Positions 6,817-35,507 of a DNA stretch of 64,000 nucleotides are shown piece after piece. Below the pieces are notes generated by a model. The model saw only the letters and a list, made by a program, of their open reading frames with translations. It was not told the DNA's origin and made no database searches. How positions within the stretch are numbered: position 1 is the first letter of the stretch; every line of letters begins with the position of its first letter. The position numbers and the translations under genes are program-made. The stretch is from Bdellovibrionales bacterium. GTDB taxonomy: Bacteria; Bdellovibrionota; Bdellovibrionia; Bdellovibrionales; UBA1609. Where the stretch lies: assembly GCA_965205945.1 (NCBI GenBank), contig CBDBIB010000003.1:736394-800393 (forward strand), in the 5' to 3' direction.

Positions 6817-7126
6817 ACAGTATAAATCGGACAGATTTTAATATTTCTTGACCTTTTTCTTGAAAAATATGTCTTAAAATTTTAATAGTGTATAGTTTTG
6901 AATCGCTTTTTATTAAAAGCTGCAGCAATGTTGCTGTACTTGTTTTAAAAAAAGGTTCTAACATTTAAAAAATATTTAAACTAATTTTAATTAGTAGCTA
7001 ATAAGTTGACTTATTAAAACGAATAAACAGAAAGAGGAGAATAAAAAGGCGGCTTTAGATATGTTGACTTCATACCATTTCGGAAAATTTTTGGATAGTT
7101 GGGACCTGAAGGGAAATTTAATTCAG

Positions 7127-7924: not shown

Positions 7925-8166
7925 ATGAGGAGAGTCATCAACATACTTTTTTAAAGTACAGGTGTTAATGATCTCATCTTTTTCTTTATCACTTAATTTA
8001 TTTTTTGGAGGCGATAAGGGTCCTTTTCTTTTATCAGTTAAAGAAAGTTTCCAGCGGTTGAAAGTTTTAATATCAATTTCTAAATCGCTGCAGGCAAGTT
8101 TAAGTCTACAGCCATTTTTAGAAGAGGTGTTAATTAATTCAAGACAAACTTCTTTGTCATCAGGAC

Positions 8167-8667
8167 TTAATCTTCGTCCTCTTTGACCCCCCAGATCTCG
8201 TGGCTTTTTTTTAACAAGATGATTCTAGCAGACTGTTCAGCTAGAGCTTTTTCAGCTCGATTTAAAGATCTTTCTAAGTTTATTTTATCTTTCCTTAAAG
8301 TTTTAATTTCAGGATCAAGTGAAGGTCTTCCAACAGGATTTTGTCCAAGTAATTCTTTTTCAAAATTAATAAGGTCTGAAGAGTTAAGTCCATTTTCTCT
8401 AAGAAATTTTCCAAGTTCGTTTTCATTTAAAGATTGAGTTTTTTTAATAAAGTTAAGTTTGTCTTCAAGAGAGAGTTTTTTATTGCTGTTGCTGTGGGTC
8501 ATAGAATTTAAATTAGCATATTTTTTCTTCCATCCATAGAGGGTTGAAGAGGCAATGTTAAGTTTACTAGCGGTGTAAGTGAGTCCTTTTTTGTCAGCGA
8601 GTAATTTTTTCACAGCGTTGAGTTTAAAGTTTTCATTATAAGTTTTATTGAGGTTATTGTTTTTCAT
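8167..8667 (-). CDS. IS3 OrfA
   Basis: N-terminal HTH, coiled coil, LKK encoded by A8G slippery run. Confidence 0.9.
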   Translation of the reverse strand: MKNNNLNKTYNENFKLNAVKKLLADKKGLTYTASKLNIASSTLYGWKKKYANLNSMTHSNSNKKLSLEDKLNFIKKTQSLNENELGKFLRENGLNSSDLINFEKELLGQNPVGRPSLDPEIKTLRKDKINLERSLNRAEKALAEQSARIILLKKSHEIWGVKEDED

Positions 8668-9024
8668 ATGTTTTCCTTTTTAAGCCCCTGATATTGTTTA
8701 AATAAAGTGGATTTCAAAAGTTAAACTGAATTTTAAATAATTAATTTTTCTCTCAGGTCCCAACTATCCAAAAATCGGGGGATTTCGGCATTGAATAAAG
8801 AGCTTAAAGTTTAAGCCTTTTTACTAAAGCAGTCCTAAAGATATTCTCTCCTTATTCATTAAAAAAGGCTGCTAGTAGCGCTCAAGCCCTGTTATTTGTG
8901 GCGCTACAATAAAAACAACAAATATTTTGGAAAAAGAAATTGTAAAAGTAAGAATTTTATAATATTTAAAGCTCTATTTCATAAATAAAAAAGTTTTTTA
9001 ACCCTTAATATTAGGAGAGTAAAT

Positions 9025-20662: not shown

Positions 20663-20773
20663 ACCAAAGTGGCCCGAAAATGGCTCGAAGTAAATCTTAC
20701 TAAAATCAAGAAATTAGATTTAGTTTTACTTTGTTATTTTCTCTAATAATTTTAGTACTTTAGAGCCGATAAA

Positions 20774-20789
20774 TGGTCGGGGAGACAGG
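20774..20789 (-). repeat. att core copy 1 (tRNA-Pro 3' end)
   Basis: tggtcggggagacagg, identical to 35431-35446. Confidence 0.9.
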
Positions 20790-20829
20790 TCGGATTGTGG
20801 CTTAGACCTAAGTATTTGAAAAAAATTAA

Positions 20830-20928
20830 ATAATTTAACGATAACAACAACTTAAAGTCTTTCTGACTTGGAGTGAATTAGAATAGTTTGGTAGGAATTG
20901 GAGTGTATTCTGGGGGTGGTGTTAGGAA
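20830..20928 (+). repeat. 99-bp element-end repeat, copy A
   Basis: About 8 mismatches versus 24272-24370. Confidence 0.9.
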
Positions 20929-20965
20929 GTTAGAGCTATTTTTCTCAAATTAAGCTATAAAAATA

Positions 20966-21010
20966 AAAAACTACTTAGTAGTTGATAAAAACTATAAAGT
21001 AGTTGATAAT
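20966..21010 (+). promoter_or_regulatory. Sigma70-like promoter overlapped by two tandem 21-bp operator repeats
   Basis: aaaaactacttagtagttgat / aaaaactataaagtagttgat; TTGATA(20982)-N17-GATAAT(21005). Confidence 0.65.
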
Positions 21011-21017
21011 TAAGTAT

Positions 21018-21350
21018 ATGGATTTTTCTGCACTATTCGGATCAGAAGCAGCAAAAAAAACGCTTCTTTATATTCAAAACTATGAAAAAGGTTACGCTGC
21101 TGAGATAGCTAAAACTTTTGAGGTTTCAAATAGTATGATCAAAAAGCAGTTAGAGAAGTTTGAAGGAGCAGGAGTTCTGGTGGCAGTTGAAGTGGGTCGC
21201 AGCAGGGTATTTGAATTCAATCCGAGATATCCCCTTCTATCAGAGCTTAAAGGACTGCTTAGTGGTCTCTTAGAGCTTCAATCAAAAGAAGATATAAAAA
21301 AGTACTTTAGAAAAAGATCAAGGCCTAGGCGAAAAGGAAAACCTCTTTGA
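21018..21350 (+). CDS. Winged-helix HTH protein (putative antitoxin)
   Basis: GYAAEIAKTF...QLEKFEGAGVL...GRSRVFEFNPRYP; ATG at 21018 preferred over TTG at 21003. Confidence 0.75.
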   Translation: MDFSALFGSEAAKKTLLYIQNYEKGYAAEIAKTFEVSNSMIKKQLEKFEGAGVLVAVEVGRSRVFEFNPRYPLLSELKGLLSGLLELQSKEDIKKYFRKRSRPRRKGKPL

Positions 21351-21892
21351 TTGATAAGAATACAACACTTAAAGAGTTGGCTTTTGTAGTTTCAAGCCAA
21401 TTAGAAAAACATGACGTATCAGCAATTCTTGTAGGAGGTGCTGTGGTTTCAATATATACAGAGAATGAATACCAGTCTTACGATTTAGATTTTTGTTCAG
21501 TGGACTCAGTTAAAAAAATTGATGAAGCTCTTTTTCAAATTGGATTTAAGAAAGAGGGGCGGCGCTATAAACATTCTAATTCTGATTACTTTGTCGAGTT
21601 TCCTGGTGCTGTTGTGGTGCTAGGAAATGAGCATCAGACAGATTATGATCAATTGTCTGTTGATGGCAGAATACTAAAACTCCTTTCTCCCACACAATCT
21701 ATTAAAGACAGATTAGCAGCCTATTACTACTGGAAAGACTTGCAGTCTTTGGATCAGGCCTTGATGATTGCTAAAAATCAAAAATTTAGCATGGCAAGTG
21801 TTAAAAAATGGTCTGTTGCTGAGGGCGAACTTAGCAAGTTTGAAGAGTTTGAGAAAAAGTTTAAGCAGCTTACTTTGGGAAATAGAGATTAA
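21347..21892 (+). CDS. Nucleotidyltransferase-fold protein (putative TA toxin)
   Basis: LVGGAVV...SYDLDF (GG...DxD); 4-nt overlap with the HTH gene. Confidence 0.75.
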   Translation: MIDKNTTLKELAFVVSSQLEKHDVSAILVGGAVVSIYTENEYQSYDLDFCSVDSVKKIDEALFQIGFKKEGRRYKHSNSDYFVEFPGAVVVLGNEHQTDYDQLSVDGRILKLLSPTQSIKDRLAAYYYWKDLQSLDQALMIAKNQKFSMASVKKWSVAEGELSKFEEFEKKFKQLTLGNRD

Positions 21893-22115
21893 ACCCTAAT
21901 GAGTTTTATCTTTAGAGAAGTGTGGCACTTTTGTCATTACCAAGGGAAATTGACGTTTTAACTACCAAGGGATTATGTTGGTATCGGTGTGTTAAAAAAA
22001 ATACTTAACTTAACCAGTAATCTATGCAGCCTTTAAATTACCTTTTCTGGGCCCATCCTTTTCCTTGGTAGAATTCCCCTTAGTATTTAGGACCAATACC
22101 CCTGTGAAGCTTATA

Positions 22116-22383
22116 GACCGTATGGAAACCGAGTATTTGGGAAGAGTATCTTGAGCGTCTAGAGAGACATCAAGAAGAACTGACACTTAAACCTAGTACA
22201 CTTGAAGGGGCCATGGAAAAACTTGATCTAAAAGATCTAGCAAAAGGCATTTTTGGTCATGCCGAAAAAGATAATCTTGATTGTTTTAAACCATTTGTTG
22301 CTCGTGCTGTAAGAAAGTTAACTCAAAGACAGTATCTCGTCCTTAAAAAAATATATTGGTATCAGTGCACACTTTCTCAAAAT
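22116..22383 (+). pseudogene. Truncated sigma region-4/LuxR-like HTH gene cut by an IS
   Basis: AVRKLTQRQYLVLKKIYWYQCTLSQ runs into the IS left end. Confidence 0.45.
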
Positions 22384-22452
22384 TGGGCCTCCCCAAAAAT
22401 ACTGGACAGTTTTCTAAGTGCGAACTAAACCTAAAAGGAGAGGTAAAAAGGC

Positions 22453-22793
22453 ATGGAGAAGAAGAAAGAGGCTACAGAGTCTAAAAAAAAGTACAATACT
22501 TTTTCAGAAGAATTTAAAGAAGAAGCTGTTGAATTGGCAAAGAGAGTTGGAAACAGCCAGGCATCAAGAGATCTAGGAACTACTGAAACCAGCATTAGAA
22601 ATTGGAGAAAAAAGCTAAATCTAAAACTCCTGAAAGCTTATTAAAAGAGGAAAATAAGAAGTCATATAGAGAGCTTGAGAAAGAAAATAAGCGTTTAAAA
22701 AAAGAGCTTGGCTGGATGCAAGAAATTAATACAGTGTTAAAAAAAAGCACAGCGATTTTCTCCTCAGATCAGATCAAAAAGTCAAAATCATGA
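22453..22793 (+). CDS. IS3 OrfA split over two frames (22453-22644, 22602-22793)
   Basis: FSEEFKEEAV HTH, then ELEKENKRLKKE...VLKKSTAIFS in the -1 frame. Confidence 0.8.
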
Positions 22794-23656
22794 AAGAGCT
22801 AAGTTTAACAATTCCCGTCTATTTTTTATGCATTTTTTTTGGAGTAAGTAAGAGTACTTTTTATTATTTAAATAATAAAAAAAGCTCAAAGTCGTTTCAA
22901 AGGAAAACAAAAATAAAGGAAAGAATTAAGAGCATTTTTGAATCATCGTATAAAACTTATGGTTCACCACGTATTTATGAGGAGTTAAAAGATAAAGAGA
23001 TTTTCGTGAGTGAGAATACAGTTGCAAAATACATGAAGGAGTTGGGCTTAGATGCCCGTCATAAGAAGACTTTTAAAGTTTTAACGACTGACTCCAATCA
23101 TAAGTTTAAAGTGGTACCAAGGCTTTTTAAAGTTGAAGAAGAGCACTCCTTACCAACAGGGCCAGGAAGAGTTTTAGCAGGAGATATCACTTATTTAAGA
23201 TTAGGAACAGGCAGGAATTTTTTATACTTAGCCGTAGTAATTGATTTATTTAACCGTGAAGTTGTTGGTTGGAGTATAGGTAAAAGCTTAGAGACAAGAT
23301 TGGTGTTAAAAGCACTTGAAATGGCCATAAAAAAAGTTGGCCCAAGTGCTGAAGTGATTTTTCATTCAGATCGTGGGTCTCAATACGCTAGTGATGCTTA
23401 TAGACAGTTTTTAAAAAACAAAAAGATAAGACCAAGTATGAGTAGAAAAGGAAATTGCTATGATAATGCATATACTGAAAGTTGGTTTTCAAGTTTTAAA
23501 AAAGAATTTTTATATAGAAAAAGCTATACTGGAGAAAGAGAATTAAGATCGTTAGTATTTGAATATATTGAAGTTTGGTATAACAAGAAAAGAAGGCATT
23601 CTTCTCTTGATTATCAAAGCCCTAAAGGGTATGCAATTAAACACAACCTCGCATAG
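22790..23656 (+). CDS. IS3 OrfB DDE transposase
   Basis: YGSPRI, GDITY, FHSDRGSQY, GNCYDNA, WYNKKRRHSSL. Confidence 0.95.
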   Translation: MKELSLTIPVYFLCIFFGVSKSTFYYLNNKKSSKSFQRKTKIKERIKSIFESSYKTYGSPRIYEELKDKEIFVSENTVAKYMKELGLDARHKKTFKVLTTDSNHKFKVVPRLFKVEEEHSLPTGPGRVLAGDITYLRLGTGRNFLYLAVVIDLFNREVVGWSIGKSLETRLVLKALEMAIKKVGPSAEVIFHSDRGSQYASDAYRQFLKNKKIRPSMSRKGNCYDNAYTESWFSSFKKEFLYRKSYTGERELRSLVFEYIEVWYNKKRRHSSLDYQSPKGYAIKHNLA

Positions 23657-23688
23657 GAAAAAGTGTCCTATTTCTTTGGGGAAGTCCA

Positions 23689-24244
23689 AATTGAGGAACT
23701 CAAACAGGTTGAGGTAAGGTTTAGTGACTCCATCCGCTCTCTTGCATTACAAGGTACGGATAGCCTCGAAACGGCCATTGCGCTTCTGGTTGAAGACAAA
23801 AAGAAGGCCAACAAAGAAATAAATGAGCTGAACGATGAGTTGAATAAAATCATTGAAAAAGAAAAATCACACAAACGAGGTTACGAAGGTCACGATTTAA
23901 AACGCTTTTTAAGCATGGCCTTTAGAGACTTTGATAAAATGTATGACATAGAGAAAAAAACGCTACTACAGGCCGTTTTTTCTCAAATCCTAGTACACAC
24001 AACTGATGATGGTGTCGATCTTGAGATCGTGACCTCATTAGATCCCTTCCAATCACCTGCCCCTGCCTCTAGCACTAGGGGCAAGGGTGAAGGTTTCGCA
24101 AAAATACTTAAATTCCCTTCTATTAAAAATCAAAAAACAGAAATAAAAAAAGGCCATTTTCTATCATCCAAACCCGTTCGGGGTGTGGAGGGCACAAAGT
24201 GGCCTTTTGTCGTAAATGATCGGGGAGACAGGTGGCACTTTTGA
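23689..24244 (+). pseudogene. C-terminal fragment of a large serine recombinase-like gene reading through att
   Basis: Coiled coil then EKKTLLQAVFSQILV; the start is supplied by the IS end; the tail NDRGDR is encoded by the att core. Confidence 0.5.
24217..24232 (-). repeat. att core copy 2
   Basis: tgatcggggagacagg, 15/16 match to the tRNA-Pro 3' end. Confidence 0.9.
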
Positions 24245-24271
24245 AATTCCACAAGCACCCGAAAACACTAT

Positions 24272-24370
24272 ATAATTTAACAATAACAACAACTTAAAGT
24301 CTTTCTGACTTGGAACGAATTGGAATATTTTGGTAGGAATTAGAGTGTATTCTGGGCTTGGTGTTAGGAA
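24272..24370 (+). repeat. 99-bp element-end repeat, copy B
   Basis: Matches 20830-20928. Confidence 0.9.
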
Positions 24371-24443
24371 ATTTGGGATCAATTGATGAGTGAAGGGCCT
24401 CTTTTGGTTGCAATTCCCTTAATATAGGTTTATATTTACCAAT

Positions 24444-24743
24444 ATGAAGAAAGCCTCACTCATTTTTACAGAAAAATATCTTGTAGGAAGTGATGTTGTT
24501 GTGGAGATCAAGGTTTGGCAGTTGCCTAAATCTGATTGGAAGAGGTATCCAGATAAGATCAAATACCGCTTGGTGTGTATCAACACCAGGACTGGTAAAA
24601 GGGTCTTGATGGACAACCACTCTCCTAAAGGACACCACGTTCACTTAGATGATGTGGAAAAAGACTATGAGTTCTGCACGGTGGAAGCACTCTTCAGTGA
24701 TTTTAAAAAATTTGTTCTAAACTATATGGAGGTGAAATTATGA
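24444..24743 (+). CDS. DUF6516/TumE-like toxin
   Basis: IKVWQLP...YPDKIKYRL...MDNHSPKGHHVH...YEF...LFSDF. Confidence 0.75.
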   Translation: MKKASLIFTEKYLVGSDVVVEIKVWQLPKSDWKRYPDKIKYRLVCINTRTGKRVLMDNHSPKGHHVHLDDVEKDYEFCTVEALFSDFKKFVLNYMEVKL

Positions 24744-25108
24744 AAACACTCACTATCGCTTTAAAAACCAGTGATGATCTTTTTGATGACGCTATTCAGT
24801 CCATGAAAGAAGCTATGAAAAAAGAAGTTAAAAAAGCGCCTCAATATATGATCACATTCACAAGCCCAAAGGAATTTGATAAGTTTTTAAAACACATCAA
24901 ACTTATTCGAGTGATTAAATATCTTAAACCAGAATCTGTTTACGAACTGGCTAAGGTGATGAAAGTAGATGTCTCAAACCTTAATAAGTCCATTCAGTTT
25001 CTAGAAGACTTTGAGGTCATCACGGTTAAAACAACTAAAAAGAATGGCAGGACTCTTAAAAAACCTATTTTTGAATTTGATGACATTCGGATTAAGATGG
25101 CGGCTTAA
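24740..25108 (+). CDS. HTH antitoxin-like protein (HVO_A0114-like)
   Basis: PESVYELAKVMKVDVSNLNKSIQFLEDFEVI...GRTLKKP; ATGA overlap. Confidence 0.75.
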   Translation: MKTLTIALKTSDDLFDDAIQSMKEAMKKEVKKAPQYMITFTSPKEFDKFLKHIKLIRVIKYLKPESVYELAKVMKVDVSNLNKSIQFLEDFEVITVKTTKKNGRTLKKPIFEFDDIRIKMAA

Positions 25109-25276
25109 GCTGTTATCTTTATGGCTTAAAGAAAAACGAAAGGGGTTAGTGGATGGCTAAAGCCCCCGATTTTTGGATAGTTGGGACCTGAGAGAAAAAT
25201 TAATTATTTAAAATTCAGTTTAACTTTTGAAATCCACTTTATTTAAACAATATCAGGGGCTTAAAAAGGAAAACAT

Positions 25277-25777
25277 ATGAAAAACAATAACCTCAATAAA
25301 ACTTATAATGAAAACTTTAAACTCAACGCTGTGAAAAAATTACTCGCTGACAAAAAAGGACTCACTTACACCGCTAGTAAACTTAACATTGCCTCTTCAA
25401 CCCTCTATGGATGGAAGAAAAAATATGCTAATTTAAATTCTATGACCCACAGCAACAGCAATAAAAAACTCTCTCTTGAAGACAAACTTAACTTTATTAA
25501 AAAAACTCAATCTTTAAATGAAAACGAACTTGGAAAATTTCTTAGAGAAAATGGACTTAACTCTTCAGACCTTATTAATTTTGAAAAAGAATTACTTGGA
25601 CAAAATCCTGTTGGAAGACCTTCACTTGATCCTGAAATTAAAACTTTAAGGAAAGATAAAATAAACTTAGAAAGATCTTTAAATCGAGCTGAAAAAGCTC
25701 TAGCTGAACAGTCTGCTAGAATCATCTTGTTAAAAAAAAGCCACGAGATCTGGGGGGTCAAAGAGGACGAAGATTAA
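25277..25777 (+). CDS. IS3 OrfA
   Basis: Identical protein to 8167-8667; A8G at 25732-25740. Confidence 0.9.
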   Translation: MKNNNLNKTYNENFKLNAVKKLLADKKGLTYTASKLNIASSTLYGWKKKYANLNSMTHSNSNKKLSLEDKLNFIKKTQSLNENELGKFLRENGLNSSDLINFEKELLGQNPVGRPSLDPEIKTLRKDKINLERSLNRAEKALAEQSARIILLKKSHEIWGVKEDED

Positions 25778-26019
25778 GTCCTGATGACAAAGAAGTTTGT
25801 CTTGAATTAATTAACACCTCTTCTAAAAATGGCTGTAGACTTAAACTTGCCTGCAGCGATTTAGAAATTGATATTAAAACTTTCAACCGCTGGAAACTTT
25901 CTTTAACTGATAAAAGAAAAGGACCCTTATCGCCTCCAAAAAATAAATTAAGTGATAAAGAAAAAGATGAGATCATTAACACCTGTACTTTAAAAAAGTA
26001 TGTTGATGACTCTCCTCAT

Positions 26020-26817
26020 GTGATAGTTTCAAAACTTGCAGATGATGGAGTTTATTTAGCAAGTGAATCAAGTTTTTATAAAGTTTTAAAAGAGAATAAA
26101 CTTTTAGTTCATAGAGGAAGAACAAAACCAAAAACTAAACAAAAGCCAAAAGGAATGACTGCAACGGAAGTGAATCAAGTTTATTCTTGGGATATTACTT
26201 ATTTAAAAACTTTGGTGCGGGGTCGGTTTTATTATTTATATATGTTTATGGATGTGTTTAGTAGAAAGATTGTAGGTTATAAAGTACACGTTAGAGAAAG
26301 TATGGATTTATCATCAGAGTTAATTAAAGAGATTTGTGAGAGAGAAAAAATAAAAAGAGATGAGCTAGTATTACATTCAGATAATGGCGGCTCAATGAAG
26401 GGAGCAACGATGCTAGCAACACTTGATTGGTTGGGAGTTTCAAGTTCATTTAGTAGGCCGAGTGTAAGTAATGACAATGCCTATTCAGAAAGTTTATTTA
26501 AGACGTTAAAGTATGTGCCGGATTATCCAGAGTTTTTTAAAAGCATAGGTGATGCAAGAGACTGGGTTGATAATTTTGTTAATTGGTACAATGAAGAGCA
26601 TCGTCACAGTGGAATAAAGTTTGTGACGCCATCAGAGCGCCATTTAGGAAAAGATAAAGAGATATTAGAAAAGCGTAAGGAAGTTTATGAAGCAGCAAGA
26701 AGGTTAAAGCCAGAGCGCTGGAGTAGCAGAGGAATTAGGAATTGGGAGCGAGAGAATGTGGTGTATTTAAATTGTTTGCCAAGTGAAAAAGTAGTTGTTA
26801 TGAAGAATGTGGTTTAA
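26020..26817 (+). CDS. IS3 OrfB DDE transposase
   Basis: Identical protein to 7127-7924; frame open back to the slippery site. Confidence 0.95.
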   Translation: MIVSKLADDGVYLASESSFYKVLKENKLLVHRGRTKPKTKQKPKGMTATEVNQVYSWDITYLKTLVRGRFYYLYMFMDVFSRKIVGYKVHVRESMDLSSELIKEICEREKIKRDELVLHSDNGGSMKGATMLATLDWLGVSSSFSRPSVSNDNAYSESLFKTLKYVPDYPEFFKSIGDARDWVDNFVNWYNEEHRHSGIKFVTPSERHLGKDKEILEKRKEVYEAARRLKPERWSSRGIRNWERENVVYLNCLPSEKVVVMKNVV

Positions 26818-26881
26818 CTGAATTAAATTTCCCTTCAGGTCCCAACTATCCAAAAATTTTCCGACCCCACTTACAGACAAA

Positions 26882-28177
26882 ATGATTTTGGCTTCTGAAA
26901 AAATTGATTCGAATTCAGCTTATAAGTCTCAACTGGACTGGGGGCCTTTTAAAAAAGCTGAGCTTCGAGCTCAGAAAAAGCCTATTCGTGGAGGTTTTAC
27001 TTTTGGTTCACCTTTCAAACTTGTGAACTCGCATTCTACTTGTCAGCAGTGTCTCTACTCTTTTGAGGTAGACACCTATGGTCGTGGTTGCGTTCATAAT
27101 TGTGTTTATTGCTATGCAAAGGCTGAGCTTACAGTTCATGGTTACTGGAACAATCCATATCCAGCTCCTGTAAACATCAATGAAATTAGAAAAGTATTTC
27201 ACACTGTTTTTGAAACAGATAGAAAATCTAAGTTTCGTGAAGTGATGGAAAAAAGAATCCCTATTCGTATTGGGTCTATGAGTGACTCGCTCATGCATAT
27301 GGACAGCAAATATGGTGTTACAAAAGAACTCTTAAGAATTTTAAAGCATTATAAATACCCATATGTGATTTTCACTAGGTCAGACTTGGTGGCCCAAGAT
27401 GACTATATGGAGCTTATTGAGCCAAACCTGGCCTCTGTTCAGTTTTCCATATCGTCAACAAACGATAAACTGAACAAACTCATTGAGCCAGGTGCGCCCA
27501 GTGCCAAGCGTAGGTTATCAGCTCTTACGAAACTCAACAAAGCAGGGTTTTGGACCACAGTAAGGATCAACCCGCTTTTCCCAATTATGCCTGATGGTTA
27601 CTTTACTGATCCAAATTTTGAATGGTGGGGTGAGGGTGAAGTTCCAAAATTTGATTACTCTTCATTCGATATGGTTGATGAAATTGCTGCAACAGGCACC
27701 CCCTCAATTTTAGCTGGCTTTGGTAGATTTAGTTCATTCTCACTAAATCAAATCGAAAAGGCTGTAGATTTTGATCTTCGTCAGTTCTACAACCCTGGCG
27801 AGGGTGGAGTCAAAAAATCAAAACGTGATTTTCACTTTTCAGACAAAGAGATTCGGTACTACTACGAACAGATTAAAGAGCGTTGCTATAAAAACGCCAT
27901 GGAATTTACAACATGCTATATTGGTAATGGTGAAGAGCACTTTTGGAAAGATCAGGATTTATGGTCTAACAAAAAAGACTGCTGTAATGTGAAGGGCCGG
28001 GTTGAAGCTTTTAAAACCGACTCTCGTGAAATACCTTTTGAAACAAGGTTGAGGTTCACAAATCATAAAAAAGCAGAGCCTATCAACGCCGAAACTCTGC
28101 ACAAACCTCTAGGTGGTCTTGAAACTATTGATCTGCCTAAAAAAGAAAAATCTAAGTCGCCAGAGGCTACACTTTAG
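26882..28177 (+). CDS. Radical SAM protein, spore photoproduct lyase-like (original start probably 25153)
   Basis: DTYGRGCVHNCVYCYA (CxxxCxxC), RIGSMSD, IFTRS, IEPGAPS..RRL, VRINP. Confidence 0.85.
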   Translation: MILASEKIDSNSAYKSQLDWGPFKKAELRAQKKPIRGGFTFGSPFKLVNSHSTCQQCLYSFEVDTYGRGCVHNCVYCYAKAELTVHGYWNNPYPAPVNINEIRKVFHTVFETDRKSKFREVMEKRIPIRIGSMSDSLMHMDSKYGVTKELLRILKHYKYPYVIFTRSDLVAQDDYMELIEPNLASVQFSISSTNDKLNKLIEPGAPSAKRRLSALTKLNKAGFWTTVRINPLFPIMPDGYFTDPNFEWWGEGEVPKFDYSSFDMVDEIAATGTPSILAGFGRFSSFSLNQIEKAVDFDLRQFYNPGEGGVKKSKRDFHFSDKEIRYYYEQIKERCYKNAMEFTTCYIGNGEEHFWKDQDLWSNKKDCCNVKGRVEAFKTDSREIPFETRLRFTNHKKAEPINAETLHKPLGGLETIDLPKKEKSKSPEATL

Positions 28178-28182
28178 TTGTT

Positions 28183-28572
28183 ATGGCTAAAAAGACTTTC
28201 ACAGGCGTAAACATTCAGTGGCCCATCTCTGAGCTTATTGTAAGCGGTGAGAAGACTGTGGAGACTAGAACTTACGCTCTGCCTGAAAAGCACTTAAACC
28301 AAGCAATGGTCTTGATCGAAACGCCAGGAAAGCAGGGTAAGTTTAAGGCTCGTATGGTGGCCGTGATTAAATTTACAGACTCTTTTAAATACAAAAGCAA
28401 AACAGCTTTTTATAAAGATATCGACCGCCATAAAGTCACTAAAGACTCTTTATGGGCCTGGTCAGATGAAAAACCTAAATGGGGGTGGGAAGTCACAGTT
28501 TTGAAGACTTTTAAGGCTAAAGAAGCTCCCAAGAAAAAAGGAATTGTTTTTACAAAAGACATCAGTCTTTGA
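28183..28572 (+). CDS. ASCH (PUA-like) domain protein
   Basis: NIQWPISELIVSGEKTVETR (GxKxxExR). Confidence 0.85.
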   Translation: MAKKTFTGVNIQWPISELIVSGEKTVETRTYALPEKHLNQAMVLIETPGKQGKFKARMVAVIKFTDSFKYKSKTAFYKDIDRHKVTKDSLWAWSDEKPKWGWEVTVLKTFKAKEAPKKKGIVFTKDISL

Positions 28573-28652
28573 TGTTACACATTTGTTTTCACCCGACCAG
28601 CTTATCTGGTTTATGAATGATTTTGACTACTTAGGTTTTGAATTGGAAAGTC

Positions 28653-28674
28653 TGCTGTTAGGTTCCTAACAGCA
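28653..28674. repeat. Perfect inverted repeat tgctgttagg-tt-cctaacagca
   Basis: Lies between convergent genes; terminator and/or integrase arm-type site. Confidence 0.6.
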
Positions 28675-28680
28675 ACACTA

Positions 28681-29499
28681 TCAAGCCTTCTTTTTAAGGA
28701 GCTCTTCTCCAATTAATGCAGACCCTAATGAATTAGCCACCAGAAATGCGTTGTCGTCCATGAGCGTTCCTCTAACGAACGTATTCGAAAAGGGTGTAGT
28801 CACGGCTTTGTGCCCTTCGAGAGTGCCATCTAACCCTAAGTGGTATGAAACTCCCACAGCGCCTCCGAAGGCTATGCATTTTAGGTTTGTAATTAAGAAA
28901 CCAATACTCTGGTGTTCAGCAGTTTGTGGGTCTAAGTAAGACTGGGCTGCTTCAAAGTAGCGAATTAGAAATCTGCTCACTAATCCTATCCCTATAGTAG
29001 GAATAATAGAATGGGTAAGTGCACTTCTATGTTTACCGATCCCCAACCAGCTAATGTCTTTGTCTGGTATAGCATTTCCTGCTTTGGCTCCAGCATAAGC
29101 CCCTAAACCTGTAGAGATAATATAAGCTGTTGCTTTAAGAGCGAACACGGCTCTTCCTTCTGGTGATAAACTTTTAAAGTGTGAATTTAGAGCTCTACTA
29201 TTTTTCCATGTTGAAACACTAGTGTTTTTAATTCTAGAGGGAAGCTTTTTAAGCTCGCTTGCTGTTTGTTTGGCATCTGTCCCAATGCAGTGGAGAGCCT
29301 GTTTAGGGCCTTCTTCTCGAGATATTTTTATGAAGTTTGTAGAGTATTTACCTGCGGCTATGAATGGTCTAGCAGCGGCCTTACCCATTTCAGGGAGGTC
29401 TTCTTTAATTACGCCTTTACAAACTGCTTTGTAATCATTCCTAGCAGCAAGCGTGAGGGCGGAAATAATACCTTTGTCTTGATCTAGTGTGCGATCCAT
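28681..29499 (-). CDS. YdjM-like membrane metal-dependent hydrolase with N-terminal extension
   Basis: IPDKD...HRSALTHS...SYHLGLD, with hydrophobic segments. Confidence 0.65.
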   Translation of the reverse strand: MDRTLDQDKGIISALTLAARNDYKAVCKGVIKEDLPEMGKAAARPFIAAGKYSTNFIKISREEGPKQALHCIGTDAKQTASELKKLPSRIKNTSVSTWKNSRALNSHFKSLSPEGRAVFALKATAYIISTGLGAYAGAKAGNAIPDKDISWLGIGKHRSALTHSIIPTIGIGLVSRFLIRYFEAAQSYLDPQTAEHQSIGFLITNLKCIAFGGAVGVSYHLGLDGTLEGHKAVTTPFSNTFVRGTLMDDNAFLVANSLGSALIGEELLKKKA

Positions 29500-29508
29500 A
29501 TGTCCTCC

Positions 29509-29544
29509 TGTTCGCCATAACGAATAGTTCGCTTAACCGAACTA
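29509..29544. promoter_or_regulatory. Tandem TTCG-N6-CGAA operators
   Basis: ttcgccataacgaa and tagttcgcttaaccgaacta, 17 bp apart. Confidence 0.6.
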
Positions 29545-29576
29545 TAAGTGGTGAATGATCTTTAAACTATATTATA

Positions 29577-29804
29577 ATGGAAAATTATGAATTAGATGAA
29601 AAAATTACTTTATTAGGGCAGAGAATCTCTAAATTGAGACGTCGAAAGGGTTTAACTGTAGAGAAGTTAGCATATGAGTCGGGAGTCTCAAAAGGGAATT
29701 TATCTGATCTAGAAAACGGTAAAGTAAACCCTAGGTTCACAACACTTTTATTGCTTTCTGAGGGGCTAGAAGTCTCTCTGTCAGCACTTGTTAAAATTTA
29801 CTAG
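29577..29804 (+). CDS. XRE/C-protein-like HTH regulator
   Basis: LGQRISKLRRRKGLTVEKLA...LSDLENGKVNP. Confidence 0.9.
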   Translation: MENYELDEKITLLGQRISKLRRRKGLTVEKLAYESGVSKGNLSDLENGKVNPRFTTLLLLSEGLEVSLSALVKIY

Positions 29805-30310
29805 GTGTTTCGCTCTAAAACTTGCATCAATTTTTCTCTAATGGAGCTACTTTTTATTTTTTGACGATTTGTTTTTTCATTAAATATTCCGAGATGCCTG
29901 CCAAGTAGTTCAAGAGCCTTAAGGCTGTCTTTGAGTTTAATGCTTATTTCTGGACCCAACTTCCTCTGTTTAACTTTTATTAATTCTATAGCGGATGCTG
30001 ATGTTGTTAAAGAGTTTGAAGGGATTAAATAAATTCCTTTTTCATTCAATGTCACAAAGTTATCAATTGATGCAAAGGCGATTTTAGCTAGTTCCTGCAC
30101 TACTGCATCAGCATTTATCTTTAGGCGTAGAGAGCGTTCTTTTTTGAGTTCTGAAATATAAGTTTGAATGTCAGGTTTTGTAAGGTTCTCTTGGCCAATA
30201 GACCTAGCTGTTTTGTGCGAATAGCCTGCTCTAATGGCCGACTTAGTGGCGCAAAGGTCAACGAGGTACTCTGCACAGAAAATTCTTTGTTTTTCAGTTA
30301 ATACAGCCAT
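29801..30310 (-). CDS. terS: Phage terminase small subunit
   Basis: LTEKQRIFCAEYLVDLCATKSAIRAGYS..TARSIGQENLTKPDI; KALELLGRHLG. Confidence 0.92.
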   Translation of the reverse strand: MAVLTEKQRIFCAEYLVDLCATKSAIRAGYSHKTARSIGQENLTKPDIQTYISELKKERSLRLKINADAVVQELAKIAFASIDNFVTLNEKGIYLIPSNSLTTSASAIELIKVKQRKLGPEISIKLKDSLKALELLGRHLGIFNEKTNRQKIKSSSIREKLMQVLERNT

Positions 30311-30409
30311 ATCTATATTTTATGATAGGTATGACTTTTGTGATAGTGAAAAGGCGCCGCCTTTTCTTTAAGGGCTAAATATCTTAAACAAAATACTCAT
30401 TGAACTTTT

Positions 30410-32635
30410 CTAAAAATCATCAAATTCATCAGAACCTTCAGAAAAACCGATTCCAACAAAAACATCTCCGTTAGACCTATGAATTCGCTTAAATCCCTTA
30501 TTATACATTTGCTTATAAAACTCATTTCTGGTGATAGGTGTAAACCTAGCTCCAAAAGATTCAGACCAAAACTTGAATTCATCATAAAGGTCTTTGGGCT
30601 TTATATAAGACTTTCTATCTAAACTGATTAAGCGAGTATTATTACTAAAGGCCTGGACCTCTTTATTCTCGATATCTTGAATAAACTGAGAGACCCAATC
30701 ATGGCTTGTTTGCCATTTTGAAAGCTCAGATTTCCCAGACTTCGGATTGATGAAGTGCCCCTGTGAAAGCATAAGGGATTTTATACCTTCTAAAGCAAAG
30801 TTAATGATTCCCTCAGGTGAGTGTTCAAACACTTTATCAGAAAAGTCTTTGTCGAATTCAGTTTTAGTAAAACAATTTTCAAATTTTAAAATGCTCCAGC
30901 GTCTAGTGTGTGCTCCGCTGATTCCATCTCCTAATTTTGGTAAGTGGTTTCCTGCAAAAATATGAATTGCTGGAAGTGGAGCGTAAATAGGTGCTTGGAA
31001 CTTCCTATCAATCCTAACGGCTACTCTGTCTTCAATCTTCTTTAAATTGCCATCAGACATTTCTTTTTTACAATCTATATCAGTAACTATGTTAATTAGT
31101 TTGCCAACCATTGATTCCATTAAAAAGCCTTTGAATTCATGTGGTTCAACAGAGCTCAAATTGTCTTTTTGAAGAAGTTTGGTGATTGGCAGTAAGCATG
31201 ATGGCTTCCCTGACCCTGCGGCTCCAACCATAAGAAATAGACGTGGATAAACTGGGAATAGACAAGCTCCGAACATCTGTTTCACAGCTTCAATTTTTTC
31301 AGTTTTATCTGAGTCTCCTTGAAAAGTAGAATTTAGCATCTCTAGAAACAGCTGGTTTTCAACTTTAGGGTTATTAGGGTAATTAAATTGAATGATATTC
31401 GTCAGGTAGTCTTTAGCGGAGTGTCCTCTAAAATCAAACTTGAAATTTTTACCTTTGCCACTTAGATGTAACGTGCCATTCTTAAAATTAACTTTCGTTG
31501 GCACAGGTCTAAATAAGTCTATGGATTGAGGCGGTGTTGGTGTGAATGTCACAAGCATTTTAAAAGCTTTTTCTAATGCTGTTCCTGATATTTTATTCTT
31601 TTTTGTTTTTGCTATTTGCTGTTTAATCTCGTCGATAGCGTCATTGTCTGCTAAGTTCCATTTTAGTGAGTCATATAAGAATAAACTTCTATTCTGCTTT
31701 ACTATTTTTCCATCAAAGAATTTATTATTCTTTCTATCATAGGAACAACCATAAACCTCTTTGAGTGTGGTCATAACTATTGAAAAGTCTTTACTTCCCT
31801 GATTACTGGTGGATACCAATTGGTCTAGATCTAATTTATTCTGTTTGCCATACTCTAAAGAGTTTTTAAGTTTTTCCTCTAGCTCACTTTCTCTCCAAGG
31901 TGGCTCACAGGAATGATTCCACTCCTTGAATATAGGTAGAGCAGCATTTGCGCTCAAACCAAAGCCTTTTGTTAGGAGGCAGGCTACGTGGAATGTCTGC
32001 GTGTCACCTCCTTCATGTTCTACAGCGGGCTTTTGCATTAAAATTGTATTTCTAATTTCTTCAATTGTGAACTCTCCACTAAGGGCAGAAGGCTCTATTT
32101 TTGTTTCACTAACTTTGTCGATATAGTCGTTTGGATCAATCTCTGGCAGGTCTGCTAAATTTAAACCGTTCCATGATTCGATTTCTTTATAAAAGCCTCC
32201 TTTAGGATGCAGAGAGCCTGGCGCGATGACGTATCCACCATCGGCTTTTATGTCGACGTCTATCTTTTTACCGTTGTGAAGAATCTTAATTTTACAATTA
32301 AAAGCATTTGGAAGTTGATAGACCCATTGCTCTCCTCTGTTGGTCTTCGTTTTCATTGGTGTGTGTGGTAAATTAGTTTTAGCCCAGATTAGGGCTTCTT
32401 CGGAATCCAAATCAAAAACACCAGTTTTGGACTCTACTCCTGTTACAATACCAATGTTGCAAAGTTTATTTTTAAAAGCTGATTGTAATTGTTCAGGTGT
32501 CATTCTCTTTTTTTGACATTTTTTCCATTTAATCAAAGTCGGCCCTTTTTTTCCATAAGCCACGGGGACTACATTAAGCCCCATGTTGTAAAGTTTAGTA
32601 GCCATATTGCTCGCGTCTTGAGGGGTTTTAATCAC
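30410..32635 (-). CDS. Bifunctional primase-polymerase / D5-like SF3 helicase
   Basis: NIGIVTG, VFDLD, GGYVIAPGSLH, CEPPW..EL..K, NFKNGTL, GAAGSGK. Confidence 0.9.
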   Translation of the reverse strand: MIKTPQDASNMATKLYNMGLNVVPVAYGKKGPTLIKWKKCQKKRMTPEQLQSAFKNKLCNIGIVTGVESKTGVFDLDSEEALIWAKTNLPHTPMKTKTNRGEQWVYQLPNAFNCKIKILHNGKKIDVDIKADGGYVIAPGSLHPKGGFYKEIESWNGLNLADLPEIDPNDYIDKVSETKIEPSALSGEFTIEEIRNTILMQKPAVEHEGGDTQTFHVACLLTKGFGLSANAALPIFKEWNHSCEPPWRESELEEKLKNSLEYGKQNKLDLDQLVSTSNQGSKDFSIVMTTLKEVYGCSYDRKNNKFFDGKIVKQNRSLFLYDSLKWNLADNDAIDEIKQQIAKTKKNKISGTALEKAFKMLVTFTPTPPQSIDLFRPVPTKVNFKNGTLHLSGKGKNFKFDFRGHSAKDYLTNIIQFNYPNNPKVENQLFLEMLNSTFQGDSDKTEKIEAVKQMFGACLFPVYPRLFLMVGAAGSGKPSCLLPITKLLQKDNLSSVEPHEFKGFLMESMVGKLINIVTDIDCKKEMSDGNLKKIEDRVAVRIDRKFQAPIYAPLPAIHIFAGNHLPKLGDGISGAHTRRWSILKFENCFTKTEFDKDFSDKVFEHSPEGIINFALEGIKSLMLSQGHFINPKSGKSELSKWQTSHDWVSQFIQDIENKEVQAFSNNTRLISLDRKSYIKPKDLYDEFKFWSESFGARFTPITRNEFYKQMYNKGFKRIHRSNGDVFVGIGFSEGSDEFDDF

Positions 32636-32985
32636 TGCTCCCTCCCGTTATTGTTTTGGAAAATCAAAGCAAAACTTTTAAGATTTATTAAAAATTGGTC
32701 GATTGTTTTGCGCCCCTCATGTATTTTTTTTTCATCAGCGCCACTTTCTTCTAGGACTTTCTTCAGGTGTTTGTCTAAGTCTACTCCGTTGAGTTCTAGG
32801 CTGGTTAAGAGTATCGAAATTACAGCGATGGTTCTGTCTTCCAAAATTGCTAATGAAGGCTTGTGTTCATGATTTCTAGAATGCAGGATTACTCCACTGT
32901 TTTTAAGAAAATTTTCGTCAGATGAACTAATTTTATTTAAGTTTAATTTATATTTACTTTCCATTTTCGTCCTTTTTGAAGCCAA
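32632..32985 (-). CDS. Hypothetical satellite protein
   Basis: Overlaps both the HTH and primase genes in an operon. Confidence 0.6.
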   Translation of the reverse strand: MASKRTKMESKYKLNLNKISSSDENFLKNSGVILHSRNHEHKPSLAILEDRTIAVISILLTSLELNGVDLDKHLKKVLEESGADEKKIHEGRKTIDQFLINLKSFALIFQNNNGREQ

Positions 32986-33172
32986 GATTGGCTGGCTCTA
33001 GTTTAAGTGTTTTTGATATAGCTATGACTTCTTCTGAGGTCGGTTCTGTATACCCTTTAATAATTCTAGACAGTTTTGATTCGCTGAGATTATCAACACG
33101 AGCTGCCAGCTCAGTCTGTGTTAGTCCTGCTTTTTTAATTTCTATCAGCAGTTGATAGTTTTGTTTTCTCAT
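32954..33172 (-). CDS. Cro/XRE-like HTH protein
   Basis: GLTQTELAARV...LSRIIKG..EP; AGGAGG RBS. Confidence 0.85.
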   Translation of the reverse strand: MRKQNYQLLIEIKKAGLTQTELAARVDNLSESKLSRIIKGYTEPTSEEVIAISKTLKLEPANLGFKKDENGK

Positions 33173-33214
33173 GATTTACCTCCTTCAGAGAAAAGTTTTT
33201 GCAGAGGTAAAGAT

Positions 33215-33796
33215 ATGTCGACTAAAAAATCCAAAATAGGACGTGAGCTGGGAAAAAGCTCTTACGAGGATGAATTTTTACAGCTTCACAGGTTGGATGA
33301 GGTGAAAGACTTCGAGTCTTTTAGTTCTTTTGCTATTGCATACGGTTTAAATGCTAATAATTTCGATGGCATCGTCAATTTTATAAATGAGGTAAGGTCA
33401 GAGCTTGATACGGAGAGTTCAAGTTACGATAGTTTTGAAGTTTGTGTTGTTGATGCATTAGCTCATGGCATTTTGTATGAAAATGTTAAAGGTCAAAACT
33501 ACTCAGATAGAAGGAGTGATGTGAAGAAAAAATTTGGAGGAGGGAGAAAACACCCATGTAAAAACCTTGATCTTCAAGTAGCGACTGAGCTGGTTTCCCT
33601 ATATATGTTAGGCGAAGATACCCGTAAAAAGAATAATTCTACGTATTTAAAAAAATCAAATAATTATATTTTTGAAACAATATGTTCAGTTTTGCATCTT
33701 ATTGGTGTTAATAAGGAAACTAGGTCTATCTCTAAAGCATGGAATCAAGCTGAGAGCTTCTATAAAGACAGGAAGTCTCCCTATCAAACTTTTTGA
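33215..33796 (+). CDS. Hypothetical protein divergent from the Cro-like gene
   Basis: ATG at 33215 with GAGG RBS; no family recognised. Confidence 0.55.
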   Translation: MSTKKSKIGRELGKSSYEDEFLQLHRLDEVKDFESFSSFAIAYGLNANNFDGIVNFINEVRSELDTESSSYDSFEVCVVDALAHGILYENVKGQNYSDRRSDVKKKFGGGRKHPCKNLDLQVATELVSLYMLGEDTRKKNNSTYLKKSNNYIFETICSVLHLIGVNKETRSISKAWNQAESFYKDRKSPYQTF

Positions 33797-33889
33797 CTCA
33801 TAGCATGGTACAAAATCCCAGCTCACGTCCTAGTTGTTTAATCCTATTCATGTACTTTTCTTGCAAAAACTTATTGCAAGAAAGGTGCT

Positions 33890-34090
33890 ATGGAAATAGA
33901 AAAAAGCTTTAAACCGCTCTTTGAAAACCGAGATGAAACATTAAACGTGAAGCAGGCAGCAGCCTTCTTAGGGGTCAGTGATAAAACTGTATATGAAAAG
34001 TCGAAAGACGGACTCATACCCCATCAGAGGCTCGGTGCCCGCTACATATTCCTTCGTTCCGAGTTGGTTAGATTTTTGAAAGGAGACTAA
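33890..34090 (+). CDS. Excisionase/AlpA-like HTH_17 protein
   Basis: LNVKQAAAFLGVSDKTVY...IPHQRLGARYIF. Confidence 0.9.
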   Translation: MEIEKSFKPLFENRDETLNVKQAAAFLGVSDKTVYEKSKDGLIPHQRLGARYIFLRSELVRFLKGD

Positions 34091-35383
34091 ATGTCCAATC
34101 AGAAATTCAATCCAAATCAATATAAGAACAAAAAAACAATTTATGTATCAGTTCCAGGAGTTCCAGGTGTGAACTCTATCTGGGACTGGTCAGAACGTAG
34201 AAAGAAATACTGCAAGAGAACTCTTGGTAATAAGTTTTATTCTGTAAAACGCATTAAGGGACGTCAGACGGCTAAGTGCTTTCCAAGATTGGCTGATGCT
34301 AAATTATGGCAACACAATCAGATGGAAGAGATTGATCCAGAAGACAGTGATCTTTATTTTTCTGAACTTAAAGAAAAGTTTTTTAAAAAGAAAAAAGGTG
34401 AAATTCGTATAGCTACTTACGAGAGCTACGAGTCTAAATCAAAGCACCTAAAGTATTTTGAAAAAATGCTGGTTTCAAGTATCACACCCAAAGTTATCGA
34501 TGCTTGGCTTGAGCACTTAAAGACCCCAAGGTATCTAAAGAAGCAACACAAGAGTCGAACAAGTTACAGACACGAGTTAGATGTTCTAAGAACAATCTTA
34601 GACTACTACGGAGAATACATTTGTGAAGACAATTCTTATAACCTTCCTTTTAAGAAAAGGCATAAGAGTGACTGTGTGGTTGATAGAGTTAAATACAAAC
34701 AGGCTAAAGATAGAAACAAGCGTAAGTTTATACCTAGAGAGACTGTGATGACTTTTTTGAAAGAGCTCAAAAAAAGTTCTACAGCTAAGCCTGAAGATGA
34801 GGTCTTTACAATTTTAGCTCTCTTTCAGTTTTCAACAGGAACTAGAATCGGAGAAGCTTGTGCTGTTAGTTGGAAGGATCTCCACTTAGACAGTAAAGTA
34901 GTCATGATTAAACGTAGTGTTTGTTGGAGCCGTAAAGCTGGCAGAGAAACCTTTATAGCTGAAACCACAAAAACAGGTGAGAGCAGAAACATATTTTTAC
35001 CTGATGAACTGGTTGCAGAGTTAAGAGCTTGGAAATTAAAAACAGGAAAGCCAAAAGGCTTGGTTTTTAGTTCTGATGGCTTTACTCCACTAACGAGAAG
35101 GTCTGTTCAATACCGCTATAACCAAGCTTTAGAAAAAGCAGGGTCAGAATGGAAAGGAACTCATTTATTAAGACACAGTTTTGCAACTGACTTTTTAGAA
35201 AAGACTCAAAATCCAAAGGCGCTTCAAGGTATTTTAGGGCACTCAACAGCTCAACAAACAAATTACTATTCTAAGATCACCGATGGGCTAATGCAGAAAG
35301 GAATGGACCAATATAAAGATTCATATTCTGAAATTGCAGAGGTCATAAACATGGGTGCTGTTAGGAAGGTGTTAGGAAGCTAA
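34091..35383 (+). CDS. int: Tyrosine integrase
   Basis: TGTRIGE, TKT, HLLRHSFAT, LGHS, YYS catalytic set. Confidence 0.95.
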   Translation: MSNQKFNPNQYKNKKTIYVSVPGVPGVNSIWDWSERRKKYCKRTLGNKFYSVKRIKGRQTAKCFPRLADAKLWQHNQMEEIDPEDSDLYFSELKEKFFKKKKGEIRIATYESYESKSKHLKYFEKMLVSSITPKVIDAWLEHLKTPRYLKKQHKSRTSYRHELDVLRTILDYYGEYICEDNSYNLPFKKRHKSDCVVDRVKYKQAKDRNKRKFIPRETVMTFLKELKKSSTAKPEDEVFTILALFQFSTGTRIGEACAVSWKDLHLDSKVVMIKRSVCWSRKAGRETFIAETTKTGESRNIFLPDELVAELRAWKLKTGKPKGLVFSSDGFTPLTRRSVQYRYNQALEKAGSEWKGTHLLRHSFATDFLEKTQNPKALQGILGHSTAQQTNYYSKITDGLMQKGMDQYKDSYSEIAEVINMGAVRKVLGS

Positions 35384-35430
35384 CCCCTAAAAACAAAAAA
35401 GCCAGCAATATAGCTAGCTTATTCATCAAT

Positions 35431-35507
<77 letters not shown>

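Follow-up and report, generated by a model that had tools for sequence, protein, structure and literature searches.

What does a radical S-adenosylmethionine (SAM) enzyme do beside a small ASCH-fold protein on an integrated genomic island, and are the two genes a complete system? The question is raised by a 64,000-nt stretch of a Bdellovibrionales genome (assembly GCA_965205945.1, contig CBDBIB010000003.1, positions 736,394 to 800,393; hereafter the window), in which an island contains two open reading frames (ORFs) of 431 and 129 aa, 5 nt apart (Table 1). An initial annotation of this sequence had read them as the self-contained two-gene cargo of a phage satellite, a candidate nucleobase-modification or anti-phage system. 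Both ORFs and their spacing stand, and the interpretation is partly supported: it was right on a mobile, defence-linked and unnamed pair, and wrong on its completeness and on its restorable start. In our preferred reading, to which we give a probability of about one half, the pair is an orphan, truncated by an insertion sequence (IS), of a conserved operon encoding a small protein, the radical SAM protein and the ASCH protein, and this operon is a DNA-base-directed accessory of methylation-based restriction. As judged from gene neighbourhoods, in Bdellovibrionota and a few other bacteria this operon is carried by integrative elements and defence islands, beside N6-adenine-type methyltransferase and restriction genes.

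A near-obligate pair with a patchy distribution

The search for related loci used peptide patterns derived from the window protein itself. Close homologues of the radical SAM protein, at 60-90% identity, number in the hundreds and are mostly labelled Bdellovibrionota, and there are 173 homologues of the ASCH partner; contigs of equal length recur often in the two sets. The ASCH gene lies directly 3' of the radical SAM gene in 36 of 38 genome-contig loci, the exceptions being a gene fragment and a contig end, and follows it in 37 of 38 further loci, the exception again being a contig end. After removal of near-duplicates, 65 loci remain; 62 of them could be assessed, and the radical SAM-ASCH order holds in 61. 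The co-occurrence that the initial annotation had proposed to score is thus very high, and the two genes form a near-obligate pair. Of the 52 loci with enough upstream sequence, 33 encode a small conserved protein of about 80 aa ahead of the pair. Its assignment as a ribbon-helix-helix protein was suggested by its pattern and stays unconfirmed, DUF6290 being matched by only 3 of 11 members (best E 0.0038); its profile gave nothing significant against PDB sequences.

In a sample of 301 genomes spanning the phylum, 37 contain an orthologue of the radical SAM protein (31 of 169 genera), and the gene was found in none of the four other genomes of the same genus. Outside the phylum, single pair loci occur in one Polynucleobacter and one Spirochaetales assembly. 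This patchiness indicates an accessory, horizontally moving module and, together with the location of loci on islands, agrees with the enrichment in mobile elements and defence islands expected by the initial annotation. At least seven pair copies or fragments lie in one Oligoflexales chromosome of 2.18 Mb (loci L020, L026, L027, L028, L032, L038), which suggests that the module there rides a proliferating element. Most of these copies adjoin N6_N4 methyltransferase genes, AbiE pairs, recombinase fragments and transposases. Among IMG/VR viral contigs eight peptide-pattern matches were obtained, none of which was confirmed, and among GenBank phages nine records gave distant matches to the radical SAM core domain only (22-32% identity) and none to ASCH.

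Methyltransferase and restriction genes beside the pair

A DNA methyltransferase homologue is found in 41 of the 44 loci with at least 3 kb of downstream sequence, and within 2 kb in 38. Thirty of the 41 are Eco57I/N6_Mtase type IIG-like proteins of about 1,000-1,300 aa with MmeI-type domains, matching the PADLOC type IIG and DrmMI models; the other 11 are N6_N4_Mtase proteins, some of them followed by a ResIII helicase and some fused to Mrr_cat. In one locus scored as methyltransferase-negative (L013), a fragment of 298 aa falls into the type IIG cluster. Recurrent neighbours are a Z1-domain motor protein (cluster c6; Pfam 2e-65, PADLOC MzaC 2.3e-107), a DUF2779 protein, a cold-shock-domain protein, an AAA_5 protein and PDC-S14. 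Gene order and orientation around the pair vary between loci, and the presence of two unrelated methyltransferase families in such varied orders argues for a functional rather than an inherited adjacency. In the Polynucleobacter locus (L029) the pair is co-directional with, and follows, an MmeI-like methyltransferase and an SNF2-PLD protein, and precedes an Mrr_cat nuclease; this partner set differs from those of Bdellovibrionota and is DISARM-like or BREX-like.

These neighbourhoods bear directly on the reading of the initial annotation, a self-sufficient two-gene anti-phage system carried as satellite cargo, in which the ASCH protein would sense modified phage nucleic acid and the radical SAM enzyme would damage it or make an antiviral product. 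Such a system would accord with the satellite-like island here and in two other loci (L004, L030), with the patchy distribution, and with the Thoeris-like TIR, AbiE, PDC-S14 and HEPN/RES genes that neighbour the pair elsewhere. Against it, the methyltransferase linkage in 41 of 44 loci ties the relatives' operon to methyltransferase and restriction genes that are lost in the window, the window copy is truncated, and neither protein matches a system model in PADLOC-DB v2.0.0, which gives nothing beyond a 15-bit viperin trace (pVip, E 0.003, 15.1 bits) and a BilB hit at E 0.005; the orthologues of the pair in another locus (L002) have no PADLOC match at all. Moreover, identity across loci is about 60-70% for the radical SAM protein and 47-65% for ASCH, as against 22-71% for the neighbouring restriction genes, a degree of conservation unusual for an arms-race sensor and more in keeping with a substrate of constant chemistry than with a target that is sequence-specific or subject to an arms race. 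We therefore regard the two-gene system as rather improbable.

Truncation of the window copy beside an insertion sequence

The 431-aa ORF opens at an internal methionine, and the homologous frame extends upstream to 26864 (FPTPLTDKM). Homologues at 90% identity start about 31-34 residues further upstream and run into '...FIETPLTDKMI', of which the window retains only FPTPLTDKM 3' of an IS3-type element. This element consists of a 1687-bp core (25170-26856) with 37-nt inverted repeats and 7-nt end letters. Eight full copies, 99.6-100% identical and all with the same kinds of 7-nt ends, are present in the 1.87-Mb genome, and the contig depth of the IS is about 333, as against 4-6 in the flanks. 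The integrase-core (rve) Pfam match was seen on an identical copy at window positions 7127-7921, within the second IS copy of the window (7088-8774). On one side the 7-nt ends read CCCCCGA (CCCTCGG in one copy) or CGGAAAA, and on the other TTTTCCG or TCGGGGG, alternatives that look like halves of two palindromes.

The closest relative, locus L053, encodes a radical SAM protein 89% identical in amino acids (79% in nucleotides) to the window copy. Its genes are, in order, HEPN/RES, Z1, cold-shock domain, a type IIG methyltransferase with a TaqI_C specificity domain, the small protein, radical SAM and ASCH, and 3' of the pair lie a DUF3987 primase, an excisionase (Xis) 74% identical to that of the window and a split integrase. 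Since the whole set sits on a related integrative element, the window island most probably once carried it too. DNA homology between the two loci (79.2% over 1699 nt, 26864-28562) begins at the first base after the IS, and nothing homologous to L053 was found by DNA comparison in the left IS flank. In the window and its own genome there is no PF02384 match and no homologue of the partner proteins; the rest of the genome showed no more than a single N6_N4 methyltransferase, on a different contig, and a single marginal match to Eco57I.

The simplest account of the truncation would be an IS-associated deletion. A 4-bp target duplication accompanies only two of the eight IS copies, so that its lack at this copy is weak evidence for a deletion. 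By comparison with L053, the gene would have lost to the IS its own 5' end (about 31-34 codons), the small upstream gene and the restriction partners. The initial annotation had spoken of a restored start reading MAKAPLTDK. Excising the whole element, within the limits given by its eight copies, leaves the upstream ATG out of frame, and excising only the 1687-bp core brings it in frame by read-through of IS-end letters; the upstream start of close homologues and the onset of L053 homology at the IS end both speak against this as the ancestral start. What is retained has not decayed, as the radical SAM sequence shows one private change in 116 otherwise-invariant columns and the ASCH sequence none in 25.

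A spore photoproduct lyase-like radical SAM protein

Membership of the radical SAM superfamily is well supported (PF04055, 44.2 bits against a cut-off of 29.5, E 3.1e-11 in a Pfam scan). The cluster motif is CVHNCVYC (C70-x3-C74-x2-C77), and the CQQC, TTCYIG and DCC motifs listed by the initial annotation are likewise present: C54, C57, C70, C74, C77, C345, C367 and C368 are invariant in a 42-sequence alignment, leaving five invariant cysteines beyond CxxxCxxC. Compared with spore photoproduct lyase (SPL), the protein is extended at its C-terminal end by about 90 residues.

The placement within the superfamily is less sharp. Over core residues 48-238 only, the protein scores 84.6 bits with the PA0069 family model (NF033668, cut-off 360, E 6.6e-24) and 71.5 bits with the Rv2578c model (NF038135, cut-off 430, E 6.2e-20), and its scores with the SPL models are likewise under the curated thresholds (PF20903, 18.2 bits against 27; TIGR04070, 18.3 against 400; TIGR03886, 18.4 against 437.55). 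The model for radical SAM mobile pair protein B (TIGR04470) gives 45.6 bits against 410; that protein has as partner gene a second radical SAM protein, pair protein A, whereas the partner here is ASCH. Prokaryotic viperin (NF038283) gives 15.4 bits against 180. PHROG 13321, of unknown function, matches the core at E 3.5e-30, and language-model neighbours of the protein include SPL-family clusters, about half of them viral. A profile of the protein gave nothing significant against PDB sequences, the best real match being SPL at E 0.13.

At the level of structure the likeness to SPL is clearer. Foldseek places SPL first for the AlphaFold2 model (pLDDT 75) at E 3.7e-6, and in the VIA comparison SPL entries take ranks 1-6, with Z 13.7-14.4, root-mean-square deviations of 4.1-4.5 and 267-276 aligned residues (best match Z 14.4, deviation 4.2, 274 residues, model residues 18-346), in keeping with an SPL-like overall fold. 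The next enzyme, MqnE, reaches Z 13.5. With a margin of only about 1 Z over other radical SAM enzymes and family scores under their cut-offs, 'SPL-like' is fair as a name for the clade, and assignment to the SPL or PA0069 families is not. SPL catalysis depends on a hydrogen-donor cysteine, Cys140, and a Tyr96/98 relay in the Geobacillus enzyme.

The SPL match and the nature of the nearest named families, which are SOS/LexA-regulated, together suggest DNA-directed chemistry. They also invite a more mundane account, namely that the protein is an ordinary enzyme of DNA-damage repair, encoded by an SOS gene like PA0069/Rv2578c and assisted by a helper, and is found in islands merely because islands collect accessory genes. 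SOS regulation of the nearest named families, in the accessible part of the sources on them, the top rank of SPL among structures and the high sequence conservation are all as expected for such an enzyme. They are outweighed by the PA0069 score, so far below its cut-off, by the occurrence of the gene in only 37 of 301 genomes of the phylum and in none of four congeneric ones, and by a methyltransferase adjacency that persists across different gene orders, and this account is in our view highly improbable.

An ASCH-fold partner with its own conserved block

By sequence models the 129-aa protein could not be assigned: no Pfam, NCBIfam or PHROGs family matched it (E <= 0.01 or 0.001), and its profile gave nothing significant against PDB sequences (best TTHA0113, E 0.4). 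The predicted structure (AlphaFold2, pLDDT 90.2) identifies it more readily, ASCH structures ranking first in Foldseek (TTHA0113, 2dp9, E 1.7e-5, then EOLA1, ZmASCH, YqfB and TRIP4) with probability 1.00 against 2dp9, 5y7d, 5guq and 9kyf, and viral ASCH proteins from BFVD matching at E 5e-7 to 1e-6. Residues G22, K24, E27 and R29, forming GxKxxExR, are invariant in 44 homologues; this is reportedly the motif that Iyer and colleagues named in 2006 as ASCH-type. The ASCH call of the initial annotation is hence confirmed by the modelled PUA-like fold and the motif. The same 44 homologues share an invariant Trp/His-rich block (S89, W91, K99, W102).

Twelve longer proteins carry a fused relative of this ASCH protein. 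In one of them, a 277-aa protein from a eukaryotic transcriptome (P0243), the ASCH-subfamily relative is fused to a cold-shock domain, and no radical SAM or methyltransferase fusion is seen among the 12 in precomputed Pfam assignments. Complex prediction for the radical SAM and ASCH proteins scored 0.00, which we count neither way.

The fold raises the possibility that the substrate is RNA, for instance a modified tRNA or rRNA base, by analogy with the YqfB-type ASCH acting on N4-acetylcytidine. Here the nearest ASCH structures, which include the RNase ZmASCH and the N4-acetylcytidine amidohydrolase YqfB, and the cold-shock gene and cold-shock-domain-ASCH fusion, which point to single-stranded nucleic acid, have to be set against conserved neighbours that, the cold-shock protein excepted, are all DNA enzymes, and against closest radical SAM relatives that act on DNA or are DNA-damage regulated as far as the available accounts of them go. 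We consider an RNA-acting module the least probable of the accounts weighed here.

A possible role in the DNA base-modification state

The high conservation of the pair and its SOS-regulon relatives lead us to favour an accessory that acts on modified or damaged DNA bases and is tied to methylation-based restriction. In the mechanism we propose, the basic, Trp-rich ASCH protein would bind a modified DNA base, most simply an N-methylated one. The radical SAM enzyme would use its [4Fe-4S] cluster and SAM to generate a 5'-deoxyadenosyl radical, which could then carry out an SPL-like hydrogen abstraction on the ASCH-bound base. The pair would thereby edit or repair the base-modification state of DNA for the neighbouring restriction-modification system, rather than act as a stand-alone defence. 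Such an accessory might repair or proof-read bases, hypermodify them or erase phage modifications, options which the present analysis does not separate. In the window, the IS would have removed the first 31-34 or so codons, the small upstream gene and, to judge from L053, the Z1 motor, the cold-shock protein and the type IIG methyltransferase; the remaining pair is left with neither a partner close by nor its native promoter and is probably silent or unregulated.

Hypermodification can be given a more specific form, in which the methyltransferase lays down N6-methyladenine or N4-methylcytosine and the radical SAM and ASCH proteins convert it, or a neighbouring base, into a complex self mark. 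The linkage to two unrelated amino-methyltransferase families would suit such a writer, as would the five extra invariant cysteines, which could hold a second cluster like that of group-inserting radical SAM enzymes. Conserved adjacent genes of a donor pathway for sulfur, carbon or sugar are lacking, however, and the nearest relatives are repair-type and not biosynthetic, so that a writer seems distinctly unlikely.

Several observations weigh against an accessory of restriction acting on DNA bases. Because the loci were gathered with peptide patterns of the window protein, remote relatives are under-represented, and closely related loci do not count as independent. Every SPL-clade hidden Markov model score of the radical SAM protein is far under its curated cut-off, and the structural margin of SPL over other radical SAM enzymes is slight. 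Two loci with long flanks (L026, L031) have no methyltransferase homologue by the queries used; they have other defence-type neighbours, one locus a ThsB-like TIR protein and the other a DEAD-MZB helicase. ASCH proteins are more often tied to RNA, a cold-shock-domain gene accompanies the type IIG gene, and the fusion of the two domains exists (P0243). Finally, no invariant residue is missing from the truncated gene, and the IS end could still drive its expression.

A stronger version, tentative and unlikely as it stands, would make the operon a new kind of radical-SAM DNA-base editor working with restriction-modification. In one form N6-methyladenine would be read through an aromatic pocket of ASCH and then converted or removed; in a bolder form SPL-like C-C cleavage would strip carbon-linked hypermodifications from phage DNA and so let the restriction enzyme cut. 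If the base-editor reading were true, restriction-type defence would gain its first radical-SAM component. Restriction-modification is usually taken to require only a methyltransferase and a nuclease, and a conserved pair beside two unrelated methyltransferase classes on mobile islands points to an unrecognised third activity, be it base repair, editing or erasure. Such an activity would extend the chemistry known from the SPL/COG1533 clade, in which SOS-regulated members are still without a known lesion, and could yield a new enzyme acting on modified DNA. As the window copy appears to be an IS-truncated orphan, intact loci of the L053 type are the better objects of study.

The island and its surroundings

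The island extends from 24213 to 35447 (11.2 kb) and is integrated at a tRNA-Pro gene, of whose 3' end a 13-nt exact core is repeated at 24213 and 20770. The PICI-like gene set (PICI, phage-inducible chromosomal island) comprises integrase, replication and packaging genes with flanking att sites in about 10-15 kb, without virion structural genes. The island has an integrase, a replication module, a packaging gene, att repeats and the appropriate length (Table 1), and no capsid or tail family was found by Pfam among the 13 island ORFs scanned, smaller ORFs being only partly covered. An arrangement in which the terminase adjoins the pair recurs in L004 and L030. It is therefore reasonable to regard the pair as cargo of an integrated satellite-like island, much as the initial annotation had it.

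Table 1 Features of the radical SAM-ASCH island in the window
Feature	Coordinates	Strand	Basis
Distal att-like copy of the tRNA-Pro 3' end, left island end	24213..24233		Repeat search
TumE-like toxin and HVO_A0114-like antitoxin, left IS neighbour, outside the conserved module	24444..25108	+	Pfam
IS3-type insertion sequence abutting the truncated radical SAM gene	25163..26863	+	Inverted repeats, genomic copies
IS orfA	25277-25777		
IS orfB	26020-26817		
5'-truncated radical SAM gene, SPL/COG1533 clade	26882..28177	+	431-aa ORF, Pfam PF04055, N-terminal comparison
ASCH-fold protein, 129 aa, 5 nt 3' of the radical SAM stop codon	28183..28572	+	Fold match, motif
Predicted membrane protein, 272 aa, 3' of ASCH	28681..29499	-	ORF call
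Small terminase subunit (Terminase_2)	29801..30310	-	Pfam
PrimPol-D5_N-DUF5906 primase-helicase, island replication module	30410..32635	-	Pfam
Excisionase (Xis)-like 66-aa ORF preceding the integrase	33890-34090		Homology to L053 Xis
Tyrosine integrase	34091..35383	+	Pfam; homology to L053 integrase
tRNA-Pro(TGG) with att core at its 3' end, right island end	35427..35507 (gene 35431-35507)	-	tRNA call, repeat search

The island also holds a helix-turn-helix (HTH) gene between the membrane protein and the terminase, and regulators between the primase-helicase and the Xis-like ORF. The 272-aa membrane protein was considered as a third component and rejected: it has no similarity to the ORF in the same position in L053 and clusters with no other locus.

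To the left, between two att-like copies, lies a tandem island remnant without integrase (20770-24233); over roughly its first 160 nt it is similar to the left end of the main island (89% over 112 nt). Within the remnant are an HTH and DUF2204-like nucleotidyltransferase gene pair (21003-21892; PADLOC PDC-M05A at 5e-9) and another IS3-type element, distinct from the first (22453-23656). A predicted lipoprotein of 1640 aa, with a Big_3_3 trace and three long internal repeats that are nearly identical, is encoded just outside the island (15184-20106).

Comparison with known systems

In its genes the setting resembles PICI-like satellites, being a tRNA-integrated 11.2-kb island with an integrase, a Xis-like ORF, a primase-helicase and a small terminase; it differs in the tandem integrase-less remnant alongside (20770-24213).

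SPL itself (PDB 4FHC and related entries) shares with the window protein the radical SAM TIM-barrel and the CxxxCxxC cluster and is its top structural match. Identity is only 14-16%, however, and SPL is tied to sporulation, whereas the window family is tied to ASCH and methyltransferases. Genes of the PA0069/Rv2578c families are known as stand-alone genes, in contrast to the window family, a patchy mobile pair with ASCH, and their models give the best matches over the radical SAM core, yet far under the cut-offs. In the accessible part of the literature, PA0069, Rv2578c and COG1533 'SplB' are SOS/LexA-regulon genes of unknown lesion specificity whose substrate is presumed to be DNA.

For the Z1-domain neighbour, the DEAD-Z1 motor subunit of CglI/NgoAVII-type ATP-dependent restriction enzymes (the H subunit in the CglI type) offers a precedent in the available text of PMC5861437. 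This likeness, and that to PADLOC MzaC, concerns the neighbour in relatives and not the pair, and the window is without those genes. Only Z1 (MzaC) of the Mza set was matched in relatives, with no other Mza component among the neighbours scanned.

The ASCH/PUA-like proteins TTHA0113, EOLA1, ZmASCH, YqfB and TRIP4 ASCH have the same fold and a GxKxxExR-type motif as the window protein, which is only 13-19% identical to the solved structures, has no Pfam ASCH match and bears its own Trp/His block. The closest functional parallel concerns stand-alone EVE/ASCH proteins beside type I restriction-modification operons (Bell, Wolf and Koonin 2020, PMC7641849), where, in the part of the paper accessible, a PUA-superfamily reader likewise lies beside restriction-modification genes and is proposed to bind modified DNA. 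Within that part, the operons are of type I, mostly archaeal and without a radical SAM partner, the only radical SAM protein being a cobalamin-dependent enzyme near EVE. No published description of a radical SAM-ASCH pair was found in the literature, leaving aside the supplementary tables of defence catalogues and of PMC7641849, and the pair thus remains unnamed, as the initial annotation had said. The radical SAM-ASCH family is apparently an undescribed accessory of restriction-modification systems.

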